IMG/VR virus record: IMGVR_UViG_2531839675_000018
DNA from: a virus
Lineage: Duplodnaviria > Heunggongvirae > Uroviricota > Caudoviricetes
Reading direction: 5' to 3' (one strand)
DNA: 4,332 bases
The notes below the pieces were generated by a model. The model saw only the letters and a list, made by a program, of their open reading frames with translations, was not told the origin of the DNA and searched no databases. The translations under genes were made by a program, and so were the position numbers. This document shows positions 1 through 4,332 of the stretch, in pieces. The number at the start of each line of letters is the position of its first letter. The stretch's first letter is position 1.

Positions 1-1
1 T

Positions 2-298
2 GTATCAAAAGCCGGTGAGCGTTATCGCCGGGCTGTGGCGCTTATTGTTCGCCAGCAGCGGCTGAAATTAAGCCTGTCCGGACGGCTGGCAATAAAAATT
101 ATTGCAGAACCACCGGATAAGCGCCGCCGTGACCTGGACAACATTCTGAAAGCACCGCTGGATGCGCTGACGCATGCGGAAGTGCTCATTGATGACGAGC
201 AGTTTGATGAAATCAATATTGTGCGCGGTCAGCCTGTGCCAGGTGGACGGCTGGGCGTGAAGATTTACGAAATCAGAGGTGGTAACGATGGCGCGTGA
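2..298 (+). CDS. rusA: Holliday junction resolvase RusA, C-terminal part (5' end lies upstream of the window)
   Basis: The reading frame is open from base 2 to the TGA at 296-298. The translation (…[30 protein letters not shown]…[11 protein letters not shown]…) aligns closely with E. coli RusA as I recall it (…[30 protein letters not shown]…GGRLELTITEM…). The ORF track starts it at an internal Met at 35, but the frame continues to the window edge. Confidence 0.88.
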
Positions 299-659
299 TA
301 TCCAGATGGTTCTTGAGCGATGGGGGGCATGGGCAGCAAATAATCATGAAGATGTAACATGGCCCTCGATAGCTGCTGGTTTTAAAGGATTAATCCCGAC
401 TAAAGTGAAATCACGTCCTAAGTGTTCTGATGATGACGCCATGATAATTTGTGGTTGTATGGCACGATTAAACAAGAATAATCAGTATTTGCACGATTTG
501 TTGGTGGATTATTACGTAGGTGGAATGACATTTATGGCTCTTGCACGTAAGCATAGATGTTCTGATGGGCTTATTGGTAAAAGGCTTTATAAAGCGGAAG
601 GTATTATTGAAGGAATGCTTATGGCTCTGAATGTCCGGTTAGATATGGATATGCGGTAG
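288..659 (+). CDS. Phage late-gene antiterminator Q (QuuD / Phage_antitermQ-like), 123 aa
   Basis: The ORF lies directly after rusA, as in DLP12 and other lambdoid prophages. The N-terminus [25 protein letters not shown] resembles QuuD-type Q proteins from memory, and the Cys-rich segment ([12 protein letters not shown]) fits the family. I prefer the ATG at 288 (GAGG at 275-278, about 8 nt upstream) to the GTG at 279 used by the ORF track. The start overlaps the rusA stop by 11 nt, suggesting translational coupling. Confidence 0.75.
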
Positions 660-750
660 GGATATATAGTGATGAGGGTTATGTTTTCTGTGTTTATAAT
701 TAACATGTTTATTTTTTGATGGTCATGTATTGTGGAAGGTAGATAAAATG

Positions 751-779
751 TTGCCTGGTGAATTGAAAATATTGATAAT
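751..779 (+). promoter_or_regulatory. Candidate sigma70 promoter (possibly the phage late promoter pR' region) upstream of the CPBP gene
   Basis: TTGCCT at 751-756, a 17-nt spacer, and GATAAT at 774-779. It sits in an AT-rich intergenic region about 90 bp after the Q stop, which is where lambdoid phages place pR'/qut. This is motif matching only. Confidence 0.3.
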
Positions 780-810
780 CAATCTTCATCATTAAATAAA
801 AGGAGTGCTT

Positions 811-1629
811 ATGTGGATTGTGTTAGTACTGTCACTGTCAACTCTCAGTTGGCATAAGGTAGTGGCTTTTTCATTGTTGACGGTGTCTGTTGTCCTGGCT
901 GTGCTTAATGATATTATTGATTGGTCGGTGTTATTTTTTGTTGCTACAATCGTTTTTTTTATTATTTTGAAGTTCAACTGGAAATATAACGCCTGGGCTA
1001 AATCTATATATGAAGTTGGCATAGTTTTATCAGCCATAGCATTATTTTTCCATCTATGGCCAGGGTTTCACAATCCTGTAGTGCTAAATTCTGTTACTGT
1101 TGGCCCTCAAAGTACTCCCTATACAATGTATTTTAATTTTGATAAAGCGCTGGTGCCATTTTTGTTAGTCCTGTGTACATCTTCTTTGTTTAAAAAAGAA
1201 GTAAAATCAGAAGTGTCTTTGTGGAAGTGGGGGGCTCTGTCGCTCTCTGTTCCTCTTATCCTGTTTTTGGCTGTTTTTTTTGGTGGATTAAAGCCAGAGA
1301 TTCATTTTCCTGAGTGGTTGCCAGAGTTTATATTGGCTAATTTGTTTTTTGTGTCTCTGGCAGAGGAATCATTATTTAGAGGGTATATTCAATCACGGCT
1401 ATCAGAAGTAACGTCTCCATTGGTTGCATTAATTGTGGCGGCTTTGTTGTTTGGTTTTTATCACTATTCAGGTGGTGCTTTACTTGTATTATTTGCCACG
1501 TTATCTGGTGTTGTGTATGGATTGTCATGGATGTGGAGTGGGCGTTTGTGGGTTGCCACCCTTTTCCATTTTGGTTTGAATCTGTGTCACTTGTTATTCT
1601 TTACCTATCCATTTTTAAAACATAATTGA
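811..1629 (+). CDS. CPBP family intramembrane metalloprotease (CAAX protease / Abi, PF02517-like), polytopic membrane protein, 272 aa
   Basis: The protein is highly hydrophobic with several predicted TM helices. It carries the three CPBP signature motifs in the canonical order: EExxxR (EESLFRGY), FxxxH (FGFYH) and HxxxN (HFGLN). AGGAG at 801-805 lies 5 nt before the ATG at 811, so I prefer this start to the track's GTG at 805, which overlaps the SD. The gene is AT-rich with ATA and CTA codons. Confidence 0.8.
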   Translation: MWIVLVLSLSTLSWHKVVAFSLLTVSVVLAVLNDIIDWSVLFFVATIVFFIILKFNWKYNAWAKSIYEVGIVLSAIALFFHLWPGFHNPVVLNSVTVGPQSTPYTMYFNFDKALVPFLLVLCTSSLFKKEVKSEVSLWKWGALSLSVPLILFLAVFFGGLKPEIHFPEWLPEFILANLFFVSLAEESLFRGYIQSRLSEVTSPLVALIVAALLFGFYHYSGGALLVLFATLSGVVYGLSWMWSGRLWVATLFHFGLNLCHLLFFTYPFLKHN

Positions 1630-1770
1630 TTTTTTCTATGGTTTTAAATTTATAAGACTGAAAAATAGCAGGACGTGACATTTGCATGAAAAATATGCAC
1701 GGCAAAGCATTTACGTACGTAAAAAATCAGGTATGCTGTTAAGAGTGGTTATTTCGCCGCATAGCTTGAC

Positions 1771-1792
1771 CCCGCCTCTGAGCGGGTTTTTT
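1771..1792 (+). terminator. Rho-independent terminator candidate
   Basis: CCCGC (1771-1775), loop CTCTGA, GCGGG (1782-1786), followed by TTTTTT (1787-1792). The middle GCGGG can alternatively pair with CCCGC at 1796-1800. The stem is short (5 bp). Confidence 0.5.
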
Positions 1793-1915
1793 GTGCCCGC
1801 AAAGTAGCGCAGTGCGTTAAATGTGCTGGTAGTTATTAATACAGGTCTTTCAGCTTGCTGGCTTTTTCGACAAGAGTTATTGGTGTGTCACGTTAACCGG
1901 AAAGGGTAAAAAGAC

Positions 1916-2155
1916 ATGCTGAAACAGCAGGATATGACAGAAACCGCCAGAGTTGTGTTTGATGAATTAAGCGTCACCGAACCGGCGACGGTCGGGGAGA
2001 TTGCGCAGAATACGTACCTTTCACGCGAGCGCTGCCAGTTAATACTGACCCAGCTGGTTATGCGGGTCTGGCAGACTATCAGTTCGGTTGTTACAGACGC
2101 CTTCAGTCCTGAAGGCTTTTTTATTTGTGGTAAATGGGCGGCTGGTGGGTGTTAG
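1916..2155 (+). CDS. Small hypothetical protein (79 aa), possible winged-helix DNA-binding protein (PapI/FaeA-like pattern)
   Basis: An SD-like AAGGG lies about 9 nt before the ATG at 1916. The segment VVFDELSVTEPATVGEIAQNTYLSRERCQLILTQLV has the helix / xxTxxEIA / recognition-helix pattern of small winged-helix regulators such as PapI or FaeA. The similarity is by eye only. It sits 94 bp upstream of, and co-oriented with, the AraC-family gene. Confidence 0.45.
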   Translation: MLKQQDMTETARVVFDELSVTEPATVGEIAQNTYLSRERCQLILTQLVMRVWQTISSVVTDAFSPEGFFICGKWAAGGC

Positions 2156-2183
2156 CGGCACCTGTCAGTCCTTTGCTTATGTG

Positions 2184-2214
2184 TTGATGATAATTTACCT
2201 TTTGGGGCTATAAT
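2184..2214 (+). promoter_or_regulatory. Candidate sigma70 promoter for the AraC-family gene
   Basis: TTGATG at 2184-2189 and a perfect TATAAT at 2209-2214. The spacer is 19 nt, which is longer than optimal. It lies in an AT-rich region 36 bp upstream of the start codon. Confidence 0.3.
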
Positions 2215-2249
2215 TGAACTAACCAATTGCTAATGAAAGTAAAATTATA

Positions 2250-2963
2250 ATGGTTGTTGTCTGTTCAGTTATCATGGTTTGCTCCCCAATTAATATTTTT
2301 CTTGAAAAGGATACGTTGTCACTTAAGCCCGGCTCAGTCGTTCTGGCCACCAAATGCATCAGGGCGCTTTTCCTTATGCATTATGGCAAAGTTAAAATTT
2401 TCGATATAAACCATTCCATAGTAAGTCAATATCTGGAAATTCAGCATAAGCTGACAAGAACTCATCTGACTGACGTTCCGCTTTATCTGTCACTGGAACC
2501 CAACAACCCTGCGTTGGCTGAGGCTTTAATTACCAGCCAGAGATTTTCCGGAGATACCACGGATATGTTTCTTATGATGGCATGCCTGTCGCTGTTTGAA
2601 TCAGATGAACGGATATTATTATTTTTAAGTGGATGTTTATCCAGTATAAGTGCCAAAGTCAGGGCGATAATTCAGACAGATATATCAGCAAGCTGGACGC
2701 TTGGTGCGATTGCGTTACGCCTGCATATGAGTGAGAGTTTGTTAAAGATAAAACTGAAAAATGAAGGGCACATGTTCAGTCGCTTGTTGCTGGAAGAGCG
2801 GATGCGTGTTGCTGTCAATATGTTATGTTCCCGGCATGGATATGGACAGGCTGTAGCAGAAAAATGCGGTTATTCAAGCTGGTCCTACTTTATTTCTGTA
2901 TTTCACCGCTATTATGGCTTCCCGCCAGACAGATATGTATCCAGGCAAGGGCTTGATTATTGA
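2250..2963 (+). CDS. AraC/XylS-family transcriptional regulator, YdeO/GadX-like (prophage-encoded Psr/PatE-type regulator candidate), 237 aa
   Basis: The C-terminal region has the AraC-type HTH (…WTLGAIALRLHMSESLLKIKLK…AEKCGYSSWSYFISVFHRYYGFPPDRY). The N-terminus MVVVCSVI… and blocks such as ISESLLKxKLK and AExCGYxSxSYFI match E. coli YdeO as I recall it. By my hand translation the gene has about 7 ATA, 3 AGA, 3 AGG and 3 CGG codons in 237 codons, and it is AT-rich. Confidence 0.85.
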   Translation: MVVVCSVIMVCSPINIFLEKDTLSLKPGSVVLATKCIRALFLMHYGKVKIFDINHSIVSQYLEIQHKLTRTHLTDVPLYLSLEPNNPALAEALITSQRFSGDTTDMFLMMACLSLFESDERILLFLSGCLSSISAKVRAIIQTDISASWTLGAIALRLHMSESLLKIKLKNEGHMFSRLLLEERMRVAVNMLCSRHGYGQAVAEKCGYSSWSYFISVFHRYYGFPPDRYVSRQGLDY

Positions 2964-2991
2964 TTTTCATCTGATTATTATTTTTTGACCC

Positions 2992-3067
2992 AGCCCTTTA
3001 GCTCAGTGGTGAGAGCGAGCGACTCATAATCGCCAGGTCGCTGGTTCAAATCCAGCAAGGGCCACCA
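2992..3067 (+). tRNA. tRNA with anticodon CAU, closest to tRNA-Ile2 (ileX-like, lysidine-dependent AUA reader); ileZ-like phage tRNA
   Basis: Hand-folded cloverleaf: D-stem GCTC/GAGC, anticodon loop CT-CAT-AA, T-arm GCTGG-TTCAAAT-CCAGC, and an encoded 3' ACCA. Overall it is close to E. coli ileX as recalled. It has A:C mismatches at positions 1:72 and 27:43. A Met identity cannot be excluded from sequence alone. Confidence 0.75.
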
Positions 3068-3074
3068 TCACATA

Positions 3075-3151
3075 CCGCCATTAGCTCATCAGGAAAGAGC
3101 GCCAGCTTTCGAAGCTGGTTGCGCGGAGTTCGGGTCCCCGAAGGCGGTCCA
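3075..3151 (+). tRNA. tRNA-Arg (anticodon UCG), atypical
   Basis: Hand-folded cloverleaf: D-stem GCTC/GAGC with GG in the D-loop, a perfect anticodon stem CCAGC/GCTGG with loop TT-TCG-AA, and an encoded CCA at 3149-3151. It is atypical: C1-G72, a mismatch at 6:67, a mismatch in the T-stem, and T-loop TTCGGGT with G where A58 is expected. It could be a functional phage tRNA or a degenerate copy. Confidence 0.55.
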
Positions 3152-3164
3152 TTATCTGTATCCT

Positions 3165-3241
3165 GCGTTGTTAGCTCAGCCGGACAGAGCAATTGCCTTC
3201 TAAGCAATCGGTCACTGGTTCGAATCCAGTACAACGCGCCA
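3165..3241 (+). tRNA. tRNA-Arg (anticodon UCU; reads AGA)
   Basis: Clean cloverleaf: acceptor GCGTTGT/ACAACGC, D-stem GCTC/GAGC, perfect anticodon stem ATTGC/GCAAT with loop CT-TCT-AA, T-arm ACTGG-TTCGAAT-CCAGT, discriminator G and an encoded CCA. Confidence 0.85.
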
Positions 3242-3255
3242 CACTTATTTTCCCT

Positions 3256-3281
3256 GGCTCGCTTTTGCGGGCCTTTTTTTT
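3256..3281 (+). terminator. Rho-independent terminator immediately downstream of the tRNA cluster
   Basis: GGCTCGC (3256-3262), loop TTTT, GCGGGCC (3267-3273) giving a 7-bp stem with one G-U pair, followed by eight T residues (3274-3281). Confidence 0.7.
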
Positions 3282-3478
3282 AAATGTCTCACAATTCAGG
3301 CGGTTGACTGTTGTCTGGTTTGCGGGGAGTTTGTTAAAAGAAACTGGCATGGTGAATCCCCCTGTGCGGAGGGGCAATCAGCGAGTAGGTATATGGGATA
3401 ATCGCGGATTCAGGTGCTGGTACTGAATTCACCGGGAGGCACCCGGCACCATGCAATGGCACATAGCGCCACTCTCCA

Positions 3479-3502
3479 GCCCCTCTCCGGAGGGGCTTTC
3501 TT
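3479..3502 (+). terminator. Hairpin with weak U-tract (terminator candidate, + strand)
   Basis: GCCCCTC (3479-3485), loop TCCG, GAGGGGC (3490-3496) form a perfect 7-bp stem, followed by TTTCTT. Confidence 0.35.
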
Positions 3503-3508
3503 ATGGAC

Positions 3509-3537
3509 AAAAAAAGCCCGCGCAGGGAGACGCGGGC
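3509..3537 (-). terminator. Rho-independent terminator on the minus strand (orphan: no convincing minus-strand gene upstream of it)
   Basis: GCCCGCG (3516-3522), loop CAGGGAGA, CGCGGGC (3531-3537) form a perfect 7-bp GC stem. On the + strand it is preceded by seven A residues (3509-3515), so on the minus strand the hairpin is followed by UUUUUUU. Confidence 0.55.
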
Positions 3538-3605
3538 GGCAAGGAATAAACAACAAAACGTGAAGTAATATTTCAGCTGGCGAATAATATCCGACAGTAA
3601 TCACT

Positions 3606-3628
3606 CTGCGCAATAGCGCGGCCTTTTT
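3606..3628 (+). terminator. Hairpin plus T-run (terminator or attenuator candidate) about 100 bp upstream of the esterase gene
   Basis: CTGCGC (3606-3611), loop AATA, GCGCGG (3616-3621) form a 6-bp stem with one G-U pair, then CC and TTTTT (3624-3628). Confidence 0.35.
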
Positions 3629-3730
3629 CGTATTGCGGGCTGTTGTCTCTCTTCTGCCATTGTCCTGTAACTTCCGGATTTCAGCCCGCTCATCATTTTA
3701 CTCACAATATTATCCCGGCCGGGAGGATTC

Positions 3731-4332
3731 ATGGCATTTAAACACTACGATGTGGTCAGGGCGGCATCGCCGTCAGACCTTGCTGATGCACTTGCGCAAA
3801 AAATTCGTGAAGGATGGCAACCATACGGTGGGCCGTTTTCTTCGTATACGGATGATGGCGCAGCACTTATTCAGGCGATTGTCGCAGAAGGTGATGTGAG
3901 CACACCTGTTGTGGTGAAGCTGACAGGTGGAGAAGGTGCAGTAATCAGCGCCACCAGCGACCCCGGGTATTACTTTGTTGTGGTTCTGGCAGGGCAGTCA
4001 AACGGCATGTCGTATGGTGAAGGTCTTCCGCTGCCGGAGACATATGACCGTCCGGACCCGCGCATTAAGCAGCTGGCGCGTCGCAGTACGGTGACACCGG
4101 GCGGTGTCGCCTGTAAATATAACGACATCATTCCGGCGGACCATTGTCTGCATGATGTGCAGGACATGAGCCGCCTTAACCATCCGAAAGCGGACCTGTC
4201 AAAGGGGCAGTACGGAACCGTGGGGCAGGGGCTGCATATCGCCAAAAAATTGCTGCCGTTTATACCGGCGAATGCGGGCATTCTGCTGGTTCCGTGCTGT
4301 CGTGGTGGTTCAGCGTTCACCACCGGAGCCGA
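3731..4332 (+). CDS. DUF1737-domain / sialate O-acetylesterase (NanS-p-like, SGNH/SASA family), N-terminal part (3' end lies beyond the window)
   Basis: The frame is open from the ATG at 3731 to the window end; it is missing from the ORF track because it has no in-window stop. GGGAGG at 3721-3726 lies 4 nt before the ATG. The translation MAFKHYDVVRAASPSDLADALAQKIREGWQPYGG…YYFVVVLAGQSNGMSYGEG… contains a GQSN block typical of SASA/SGNH esterases. A gene of this type follows the tRNA/stx region in Stx phages (established knowledge). The segment is GC-rich relative to the cargo. Confidence 0.8.
   Translation, partial: MAFKHYDVVRAASPSDLADALAQKIREGWQPYGGPFSSYTDDGAALIQAIVAEGDVSTPVVVKLTGGEGAVISATSDPGYYFVVVLAGQSNGMSYGEGLPLPETYDRPDPRIKQLARRSTVTPGGVACKYNDIIPADHCLHDVQDMSRLNHPKADLSKGQYGTVGQGLHIAKKLLPFIPANAGILLVPCCRGGSAFTTGA

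Follow-up and report, generated by a model that had tools for sequence, protein, structure and literature searches.

Codon usage of the cargo genes upstream of the ileZ-argN-argO tRNA array in a lambdoid prophage of Escherichia coli O157:H7

tRNA genes downstream of Q in lambdoid phages

Genes for tRNAs are common downstream of the late antiterminator gene Q in lambdoid phages, where they have been read as compensating the codon bias of the phage; the same slot and the same logic were described for tRNA-Thr(UGU) and the codon ACA (PMC3636060). The slot is also found in phages SfI, Sf6, ST64T and P21. Codon compensation by phage tRNAs is treated in PMC7946995, which cites Bailly-Bechet 2007. 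According to the compensation model (Bailly-Bechet, Vergassola and Rocha 2007) the tRNAs match the codons that the phage over-uses in comparison with its host, and this holds for all five relevant codons in the backbone of the prophage studied here, Sp4.

The closest described array is that of Stx phages (933W) and of the lambda-like prophages of strain Sakai, whose three anticodons and their order agree with those of Sp4, as does the position between Q and stx/nanS-p. In Sakai the Sp4 copy is named ileZ1-argN1-argO1, and Stx2 phages carry near-identical tRNAs. Such tRNAs, the 933W and Sakai genome papers are said to report, read codons that are rare in E. coli and frequent in phage and virulence genes; full-text literature searches on ileZ/argN/argO and on rare codons and the 933W tRNAs yielded nothing useful. 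Sp4 differs from the Stx-phage cluster in three respects: no stx genes follow the array, psrA takes the place of a DNA methylase gene upstream of it, and ileZ begins with A instead of G.

The supply of a minor tRNA can limit genes rich in its codon, as with leuX and fimB in uropathogenic E. coli or bldA and UUA in Streptomyces. CodonPlus and Rosetta expression hosts supply argU, ileY and leuW, and in E. coli the classic examples of limiting codons are AGA/AGG and AUA. In contrast to systems of the leuX/bldA type, the three tRNAs of Sp4 (the trio) include no decoder of CUA, and their presence in many copies argues against a tight gate. An initial annotation of the locus had proposed that the codon usage of two cargo genes matches the tRNAs immediately downstream, that the cargo came from an AT-rich donor and that the phage tRNAs help its expression. 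It applied the compensation model to the two cargo genes and not to the whole phage, and of the pattern that the model describes the cargo shows the AT-driven part only.

The late-regulatory region of Sp4

The stretch of DNA analysed (the window, 4,332 nucleotides) is the late-regulatory region of the lambdoid prophage Sp4 of E. coli O157:H7. Positions 1-3786 are 99.8% identical to Sp4 of O157, with annotations in agreement, and the sequence diverges from it at 3787-4332. All features lie on the + strand, in the order rusA, Q, CPBP/CAAX protease gene (ECs_1085), TrmB-like remnant, psrA (ECs_1087), ileZ(CAU)-argN(UCG)-argO(UCU) and nanS-p. The 3' part of rusA (1-298, an open frame for a Holliday-junction resolvase) is annotated as RusA family in O157 86-24 and as ECs_1083 in Sakai. 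It is followed by Q (288-659; ECs_1084, 123 amino acids), identified by its annotation and by Pfam PF06530 (Phage_antitermQ, E=8e-52). At the other end stands the 5' part of nanS-p (3731-4332), a late gene for a DUF1737/SASA sialate O-acetylesterase (Pfam DUF1737; SASA family carbohydrate esterase/ECs_1088). Between the tRNAs and nanS-p, where Stx phages carry the stx genes, the Sp4 window is empty of them.

The first cargo gene (811-1629) encodes a CPBP/CAAX-type intramembrane protease of the CPBP (CAAX protease and bacteriocin-processing) family. Its match to Pfam PF02517 (Rce1-like, E=1.4e-19) reached 70.6 bits (gathering score 22.4), and the translation carries EESLFR, FGFYH and HFGLN, corresponding to the three family motifs EExxxR, FxxxH and HxxxN. 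The gene has a GC content of 37.7% amid surroundings of about 50%. Among homologues in other genera the GC content of the gene, from 0.34 to 0.58, tracks that of the genome, so AT-richness is not intrinsic to the family, and an AT-rich origin of the Sp4 gene is a reasonable assumption. A donor search among species-representative genomes found no relative above 54% identity. In a set of 5426 genomes the gene occurred at 577 places in 572 genomes.

Homology to Stx2 phages begins near window position 1737. A consensus scan picked out a terminator-like hairpin with a T-run 3' of the protease gene (1771-1792, CCCGCCTCTGAGCGGG then TTTTTT), which may act as a terminator. Reading 1771-1786 as tR', with the protease gene between PR' and tR', was set aside, since Stx2 phages have the homologous stretch between Q and a methylase gene. 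The short ORF ECs_1086 (1916-2155, GC 51%) is hypothetical in Sakai and is annotated in 86-24 as 'TrmB family transcriptional regulator, frameshifted'; a Pfam search with it gave no match, and in Stx2 phages it is conserved on the 5' side of the slot.

The second cargo gene, psrA (2250-2963, GC 42.3%), encodes a prophage regulator of the AraC/XylS family, with a C-terminal AraC-type helix-turn-helix recognized by PF12833 (HTH_18, 36.6 bits, cut-off 33.6) and PF00165 (HTH_AraC, 35.3 bits, cut-off 26.6). It is identical at the nucleotide level (100%) to the gene of O157 genomes, and its place corresponds to that of ECs_1087 in the Sp4 of Sakai. The Sakai annotation has a later start, at 2376. 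PMC13502914 equates psrA with ecs1087, and a review places it at Z1789/OI-50 in EDL933, which differs from the ECs_1087 naming; from these sources psrA is known to be expressed and to act in the host cell that harbours the prophage. In this C-terminal AraC helix-turn-helix it resembles the prophage AraC-like regulators PsrA, PsrB and PatE of EHEC, and it stands close to pchA in a prophage that carries effectors, the setting described for psr genes. At the sensitivity of the search used, homologues were confined to E. coli and Shigella, and for this reason no donor of psrA can be named.

The tRNA genes were detected by ARAGORN and Rfam in tandem: ileZ (2992-3067, anticodon CAU; Rfam tRNA 66 bits; annotated tRNA-Ile/ileZ1), argN (3075-3151, anticodon UCG for CGA/CGG; argN1 in Sakai) and argO (3165-3241, anticodon UCU for AGA/AGG; Rfam 70 bits; argO1 in Sakai). 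They occupy the interval between Q and nanS-p in the order seen in Stx2 phages, and to judge by the anticodons (CAT, TCG and TCT in the DNA) they should decode AUA, CGA/CGG and AGA, as had been annotated. The CAU tRNA is of the tRNA-Ile2 (ileX) type and not a tRNA-Met: it is identical to K-12 ileX at 67 of 76 positions, including the whole anticodon stem-loop, and is called tRNA-Ile in both the 86-24 RefSeq and the Sakai annotation. In tRNA-Ile2 the CAU anticodon reads AUA after lysidine modification. The Sp4 ileZ has A1 opposite C72, and position 1 is G in five other phage copies; with this mismatch, lysidine at position 34, charging with Ile and AUA decoding in vivo are not to be taken for granted in this particular copy.

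The array appears to be a transcription unit of its own. A promoter-like site (TTGATT-17 nt-TATTAT, 2953-2981, consensus scan) stands just 5' of ileZ and overlaps the stop codon of psrA. Across four phages with differing upstream genes (psr or DNA methylase) its TTG and TTATTA columns do not vary, and PMC2858043 names a 'pS tRNA promoter'. The site may be an active promoter, and the tRNAs may be expressed in lysogens. At the 3' end of the unit a hairpin followed by T8 (3256-3281, GGCTCGCTTTTGCGGGCC then TTTTTTTT) is a candidate terminator. Further downstream (3318-3508) a full-length small RNA of the STnc100 family was found (Rfam RF02076, 138 bits, gathering score 47, E=1.7e-31). It belongs to the context of the locus and lies outside the question of codons and tRNAs; the Rfam scan of the window detected nothing beyond it and the tRNAs.

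The complete trio was found in 2579 of the 5426 genomes. Trio-type matches, part of which cover the array incompletely, were spread over 3061 genomes at 7597 places; each of the O157 genomes listed had 7-10 trio places, and K-12 has no trio. Arrays vary: argN has the anticodon TCT in phage Stx2_95, and the array of A34 is without argN. In the slot upstream of the same tRNAs other phages carry a DNA methylase gene or nothing.

Codon usage of cargo, core, LEE and phage genes

Codon usage was compared with that of 93 annotated core genes of Sakai, 32,144 codons in total, a reference narrower than the whole genome. The counts in the initial annotation were exact: the protease gene has 4 ATA and 3 CTA ('at least 4' and 'several'), besides 1 AGA and 1 CGG, and psrA has 7 ATA, 3 AGA, 3 AGG and 3 CGG, with 0 CGA. 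With the three ORFs of the cargo pooled, the frequencies per 1000 codons were 20.5 against 2.7 in the core for ATA (7.7-fold, P=2e-7) and 13.7 against 2.1 for AGA+AGG (6.5-fold, P=6e-5). CGA+CGG (8.5 against 7.7, 1.1-fold, P=0.48) and CTA (5.1 against 4.3, 1.2-fold, P=0.46) were not raised in the pooled cargo. 'Far above typical E. coli usage' is thus an apt description for ATA and AGA/AGG, chiefly through psrA, and does not apply to CGG and CTA. There is no excess in the cargo of CGA/CGG, which the middle tRNA reads, and CTA, with no decoder among the tRNAs of the window and no excess, was discarded as part of the match.

The two genes contribute unequally. In psrA, ATA is 11-fold (P=6e-6) and AGA+AGG 12-fold (P=2e-5) above the core, a rate reached by 0 of the 93 core genes. 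In the protease gene ATA is the only codon class raised (5.5-fold, P=0.007); its five-codon total, 22 against 12.5 per 1000 in the core (P=0.13), is matched or exceeded by 26 of the 93 core genes. An index of the CAI type, with core-gene weights, gave 0.530 for the protease gene and 0.533 for psrA, below all 93 core genes and mid-range among the genes of the LEE island. Could the excess be an artefact of small numbers? The total for the protease gene and the ordinary levels of CGG and CTA would fit this explanation, but the P values of psrA and of the pooled cargo refute it for ATA and AGA/AGG, and the excess recurs in four psr alleles and two paralogues (see below); we give it hardly any credence.

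The LEE island, without any of the trio tRNAs in its neighbourhood, served as a control. Its 40 genes contain 22.4 ATA and 13.6 AGA+AGG per 1000 codons, indistinguishable from the 20.5 and 13.7 of the cargo (P about 0.9-1.0), and the three codons that rise most over the core are again ATA (8.4-fold), AGA (8.4-fold) and AGG (4.3-fold). Even the ATA+AGA+AGG rate of psrA is equalled or exceeded by 11 of the 40, and psrA does not differ from LEE genes (P=0.07-0.4). The same excess without such tRNAs in the vicinity speaks against a specific match between cargo and array.

Base composition was taken into account by a regression on GC3 trained on 133 core and LEE genes, few of which are of intermediate GC3. 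With this reservation, the cargo has 5 CGA+CGG where 4.1 are expected, the protease gene has 5 ATA+AGA+AGG where 8.8 are expected, and psrA has 13 ATA+AGA+AGG where 3.6 are expected (3.6 times, P=7e-5), which is in line with the excess in the Sp4 backbone. In the late genes of Sp4 (GC3 0.61) ATA+AGA+AGG are 4.4 times (P=2e-34) and CGA+CGG 2.4 times (P=6e-19) the expectation; in the early genes the ratios are 1.6 and 2.4. The codons most enriched over the core are AGA, AGG, ATA, ACA (2.3-fold), CGA and CGG in the early genes and AGA, AGG, CGG, GGA, GGG and ATA in the late genes, although the codons that are rarest in the core must come out with the largest ratios in any gene set under weak selection, and the match of the backbone is partly relaxed codon bias. 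Ranked by trio-read codons among 52 Sp4 genes, psrA is 8th and the protease gene 38th; the regulators Q, pchA and relE also stand at the top, Q being as rich as psrA (8 in 122 codons, 65.6 per 1000). The trio fits the phage backbone better than it fits the cargo.

Taken together, these comparisons make it probable that the trio is a widespread phage module fitting the genes of the phage, and that the cargo bears an ordinary AT-rich signature without specific adaptation. Promoter, ileZ-argN-argO and terminator would form a self-contained module, common among lambdoid prophages and located after Q, where tRNA genes usually stand, which would decode AUA, AGA/AGG and CGA/CGG, the codons that phage genes over-use most relative to the host core. 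The protease gene and psrA would be AT-rich accessory genes put in between Q and this module, and their richness in ATA, AGA and AGG the usual mark of AT-rich, horizontally acquired and weakly codon-selected DNA in E. coli. That the phage tRNAs aid translation of the cargo is physically plausible. Since tRNAs act in trans, the cargo would probably gain from the pooled output of the 7-10 trio copies of an O157 cell, as would any AT-rich island, and because of these copies the adjacent one would not be special. The cargo would then not be tuned to the neighbouring tRNAs, nor would the tRNAs be there for the cargo.

Linkage of psr genes to the tRNA array

Genes similar to psrA were found at 1324 places in 726 of the 5426 genomes. 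In all 727 records the gene is contiguous with the array and directly upstream of it, and at most about 23 of the 1324 places are unlinked. Alleles 85-94% identical in nucleotide sequence, which follow three distinct types of Q, show the adjacency as well. The literature passages on psr genes that were retrieved draw no link to the tRNA array, and the near-invariant adjacency of psr and ileZ may not have been stated before.

This linkage raises the alternative that psrA and the array are a co-inherited unit, in which a regulator rich in AUA, AGA and AGG needs the prophage tRNAs and the phage carries these so that PsrA works in any new host. Besides the linkage itself, the overlap of the psrA stop codon with the conserved promoter-like site, the excess of psrA over both the core genes and the GC3 expectation, and the persistence of 13-16 trio-read codons in four psr alleles despite positional turnover speak for it. 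However, codon use does not track the presence of the tRNAs. Two psr paralogues (63% and 58% identity), which lie at loci without a tRNA or 1.4 kb 3' of an array of two tRNAs that lacks the UCU tRNA, have 54 and 58 ATA+AGA+AGG per 1000 codons against 55 in psrA; the A34 allele keeps 4 CGG beside an array without the UCG tRNA; and the trio (2579 genomes) is far wider than psr (726) or the protease gene (572), about 72% of the full-trio genomes being without psr. The LEE genes that reach the load of psrA, the action of tRNAs in trans, with 7-10 trio places per listed O157 genome, and the A1-C72 mismatch of the adjacent ileZ also weigh against it, and the linkage is compatible with one insertion event at a fixed slot whose flanks are conserved. 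We therefore regard such coupling as unlikely. Its stronger form, a single unit in which the output of PsrA scales with the dose of prophage tRNAs, seems quite improbable; if it were true, the number of lambdoid prophages in a strain would tune acid resistance and the control of type III secretion.

The same codons could also act as a brake, holding PsrA low, with the tRNAs serving translation in the lytic phase only and having no effect on the cargo. A run of such codons at codons 133-145 of psrA, a CGG-ATA pair at codons 121-122, the load above GC3 expectation that persists across alleles, the high rank of the regulators Q, pchA and relE, and the match of backbone codon use to the trio are compatible with a brake. 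On these sequence data it is indistinguishable from neutral AT drift, and if the array is expressed in lysogens from its own promoter, 7-10 copies would weaken the brake in O157. We consider it very improbable.

Under the preferred reading, a phage module beside cargo of ordinary AT-rich composition, the feature is real but ordinary, and there is no sign of co-adaptation specific to the cargo. A gene that 'matches' nearby tRNAs is no evidence of co-adaptation without a composition-matched control, as any AT-rich island in this genome matches the trio. The better-supported statement, an established one, is that the trio fits the codon bias of the phage itself, including the GC-rich codon CGG. 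The abutment of psr on the tRNA promoter, if functional, would link the dosage of prophage tRNAs to acid resistance and LEE regulation in EHEC.

Gene order and the tRNA unit

Positions 1-3786 of the window are 99.8% identical to many E. coli O157:H7 chromosomes, and in strains 86-24 and Sakai the location is the lambda-like prophage Sp4. The region comprises rusA (to 298), antiterminator gene Q (288-659, PF06530), a gene for a CPBP/CAAX-type membrane protease (ECs_1085, 811-1629, PF02517), a short TrmB-like remnant (ECs_1086, 1916-2155), the AraC-family regulator gene ECs_1087 (2250-2963), the tRNA genes ileZ1 (CAU), argN1 (UCG) and argO1 (UCU) at 2992-3241, and the late gene nanS-p (from 3731). 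ECs_1085, ECs_1086 and ECs_1087 are referred to as the cargo and the tRNA genes as the trio. ECs_1087 is psrA, a prophage regulator acting on gadE and type III secretion (PMC13502914 and a review, PMC10877973); the name is attached to ecs1087 of Sakai Sp4 in the former and to Z1789 (OI-50 of EDL933) in the latter. The psrA start is placed at 2250 (237 aa) in the RefSeq annotation of 86-24 and at the ATG at window 2376 (195 aa) in the Sakai record; the codon conclusions were unchanged with either start.

In Stx phages the stx genes lie between the trio and nanS-p, and the corresponding site is empty in the window. An STnc100 small-RNA family (Rfam) match of full length is located between the tRNA terminator and nanS-p (3318-3508, + strand, 138 bits, gathering score 47, E=1.7e-31), and its end is a hairpin (3478-3497). 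Identity to O157 Sp4 stops at 3786, and 3787-4332, the 5' part of nanS-p, represents a different allele, so that, compared with the O157 reference prophage, the window is a mosaic. None of the genomes listed covered more than 90% of it.

A promoter-like site (TTGATT-17 nt-TATTAT, 2953-2981) spans the stop codon of psrA. The TTG and TTATTA columns of this site do not vary among four phages that otherwise have unrelated upstream sequences (psr or DNA methylase), and the site is probably the "pS tRNA promoter" named at this position for Stx2 phages (PMC2858043). A hairpin followed by T8 is found downstream of argO (3256-3281). With the conserved promoter-like site and this hairpin the array looks like an autonomous unit, which could be expressed in lysogens. 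The ileZ gene matches K-12 ileX at 67 of 76 positions and has the same anticodon stem-loop; E. coli is not known to have a native tRNA-Arg(UCG). Position 1 of Sp4 ileZ (window 2992) is A, as opposed to G in five other phage copies. This leaves the top pair of the acceptor stem mismatched (A1-C72), so a better ileZ copy than the one adjoining the cargo may exist in the cell. The gene is otherwise identical to the other phage copies, and the A is also present in Sakai Sp4.

Codon composition of the cargo

The initial annotation held that rare codons of the cargo match the adjacent tRNAs, with the implication that the cargo came from an AT-rich donor and that the phage tRNAs aid its expression. 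Its hand counts were exact on recount: 4 ATA and 3 CTA codons in the CPBP gene, and 7 ATA, 3 AGA, 3 AGG and 3 CGG codons in psrA. Usage was compared with 93 annotated Sakai core genes (32,144 codons), in which the rates per 1000 codons were 2.7 (ATA), 1.1 (AGA), 1.0 (AGG), 3.1 (CGA), 4.7 (CGG) and 4.3 (CTA). In the pooled cargo, ATA reached 20.5 per 1000 (7.7-fold, Fisher P=2e-7) and AGA+AGG (AGR) 13.7 per 1000 (6.5-fold, P=6e-5), but CGA+CGG (8.5 per 1000, 1.1-fold, P=0.48) and CTA (5.1 per 1000, 1.2-fold, P=0.46) stayed at the core level. Usage "far above" that of typical E. coli was thus borne out for ATA and AGR and not for CGG or CTA. Pure chance is excluded for ATA and AGR, and as a general explanation it is scarcely conceivable. 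Most of the signal came from psrA, whose rate was reached by none of the 93 core genes. In the CPBP gene only ATA was raised, and its total of trio-read codons (ATA, AGA, AGG, CGA and CGG; P=0.13) was equalled or exceeded by 26 of the 93 core genes. A CAI-like index with core-gene weights was 0.53 for both genes, lower than for every core gene.

The AT-rich island LEE of the same genome (40 genes, GC3 0.35), which has no trio-type tRNAs nearby, had 22.4 ATA and 13.6 AGA+AGG per 1000 codons, rates that could not be told apart from those of the cargo (P about 0.9-1.0). Its three largest rises over the core were in ATA (8.4-fold), AGA (8.4-fold) and AGG (4.3-fold). Since the rates are the same and the same codons rise most, a seeming match to the trio is to be expected from every AT-rich island of this genome. 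When ATA+AGR was predicted from GC3 by logistic regression fitted to core and LEE genes, the CPBP gene had 5 such codons against 8.8 expected, whereas psrA had 13 against 3.6 (P=7e-5); thus the load of psrA is above its composition. Its rate was equalled or exceeded by 11 of the 40 LEE genes, and its excess over GC3 is as large as that of the Sp4 backbone. That the rare codons serve to hold back a potent regulator is quite improbable, and on present data such a brake is inseparable from drift.

Chromosomal relatives of the CPBP gene, found across Enterobacterales and in two Helicobacter isolates, showed 44-61% identity in the best segment and at most 54% over the full length. In 17 relatives the GC content of the gene tracks that of its flanks (0.34 to 0.58); therefore the 37.7% GC of the E. 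coli copy points to a past stay in an AT-rich genome, although at no more than 54% full-length identity no donor was identifiable among the relatives found. The psrA homologue search, at its sensitivity, found relatives in E. coli and Shigella alone and yielded no donor. All three family motifs (EESLFR, FGFYH and HFGLN) are retained in the CPBP protein, which looks catalytically intact.

Linkage between psr genes and the tRNA array

Among 5426 complete E. coli genomes, trio-type arrays (any match) occurred at 7597 places in 3061 genomes, with 7-10 places per genome among the O157 genomes listed; the complete trio (at least 80% of the query) was present in 2579 genomes. A psr-like gene was found at 1324 places in 726 genomes, and the CPBP gene at 577 places in 572 genomes, almost always in the Sp4-like arrangement. 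A psrA+trio query was at least 80% covered in all 727 psr-holding records. The psr-like gene lay directly upstream of the array in 727/727 records. The total rose only from 7597 places for the trio to 7620 for the combined query, which leaves no more than about 23 of the 1324 psr places separate from an array. Contiguity extended to alleles that share 85-94% identity and follow Q genes of three types. That psr genes adjoin the tRNA promoter in almost every genome may not have been stated explicitly before, though the point is minor. Comparison of psr alleles (window 2250-2963 against loci L007, L010 and L011) showed lower conservation of protein than of DNA, e.g. 89.1% amino-acid and 91.7% nucleotide identity, which suggests fast or diversifying protein evolution.

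This near-invariant adjacency, together with the ATA+AGR excess of psrA over GC3, would fit a specific psr-tRNA coupling. A distant paralogue (63% identity) is, however, located in a locus without any tRNA, another (58%) follows, at a distance of 1.4 kb, a two-tRNA array without UCU, and both have 54-58 ATA+AGR per 1000 codons, against 55 in psrA. The psr allele of strain A34 keeps 4 CGG codons though the A34 array has no UCG tRNA. Therefore the codon load does not track the neighbouring tRNAs. Taking into account also that the tRNAs are multicopy and trans-acting, and that LEE has the same rates as the cargo, such a coupling is unlikely, and the claim of a specific match between cargo codons and adjacent tRNAs was not supported.

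Codon use of the phage backbone

In the Sp4 backbone (49 annotated genes), late genes have a high GC content (GC3 0.61), yet their ATA+AGR stands at 4.4 times (P=2e-34) and their CGA+CGG at 2.4 times (P=6e-19) the GC3 expectation; in the early genes the factors are 1.6 and 2.4, respectively. When the 61 sense codons were ranked by enrichment over the core, AGA, AGG, ATA, ACA, CGA and CGG came first in early genes and AGA, AGG, CGG, GGA, GGG and ATA in late genes. All five trio-read codons thus fall within the top six of the early-gene ranking (hypergeometric estimate about 1e-6), with the caveat that, in any weakly selected set, the top ratios are bound to fall on the codons that are rarest in the core. 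This situation is exactly what the phage-tRNA compensation model addresses, as presented in PMC7946995 (citing Bailly-Bechet 2007).

By trio-read codons psrA ranked 8th and the CPBP gene 38th among 52 Sp4 genes, and Q, rusA, int, relE and pchA had loads equal to or above that of psrA. The trio fits the phage's own genes better than the cargo. The highest load in the prophage is that of pchA (Sakai Sp4 locus L002, 33366-33680, ~4 kb downstream of the window), with 13 trio-read codons out of 103, including 9 CGA+CGG (87 per 1000; 0.7 expected; P=7e-8).

The array itself varies: it is Ile(CAU)-Arg(UCU)-Gly(UCC) in strain A34 (L011, 3741-3973), CAU-UCU-UCU in phage Stx2_95 (L008, 4627-4878) and CAU-UCG only in another prophage (L094, 1437-1598). 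The tRNA-Gly(UCC) of A34 reads GGA/GGG, the 4th and 5th most over-used late-gene codons. A tRNA-Thr(UGU), the decoder of ACA, occupies the corresponding slot of other lambdoid phages (PMC3636060). Immediately 5' of ileZ lies psr, a DNA methylase gene or a remnant, depending on the phage, and homology among these variants restarts only about 10 nt ahead of the tRNA.

The array corresponds to the ileZ-argN-argO cluster known from Stx phages and O157 prophages, the regulator is the already described PsrA, and the reasoning of the initial annotation is that of the compensation model, so the finding is a known arrangement combined with a known hypothesis, in which the specificity of the cargo-tRNA match is over-read. 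The trio likely constitutes a backbone module that would serve phage translation, and the cargo genes would be unremarkable AT-rich morons (accessory insertions in the prophage), which would share the benefit in trans, alongside every other AT-rich gene.
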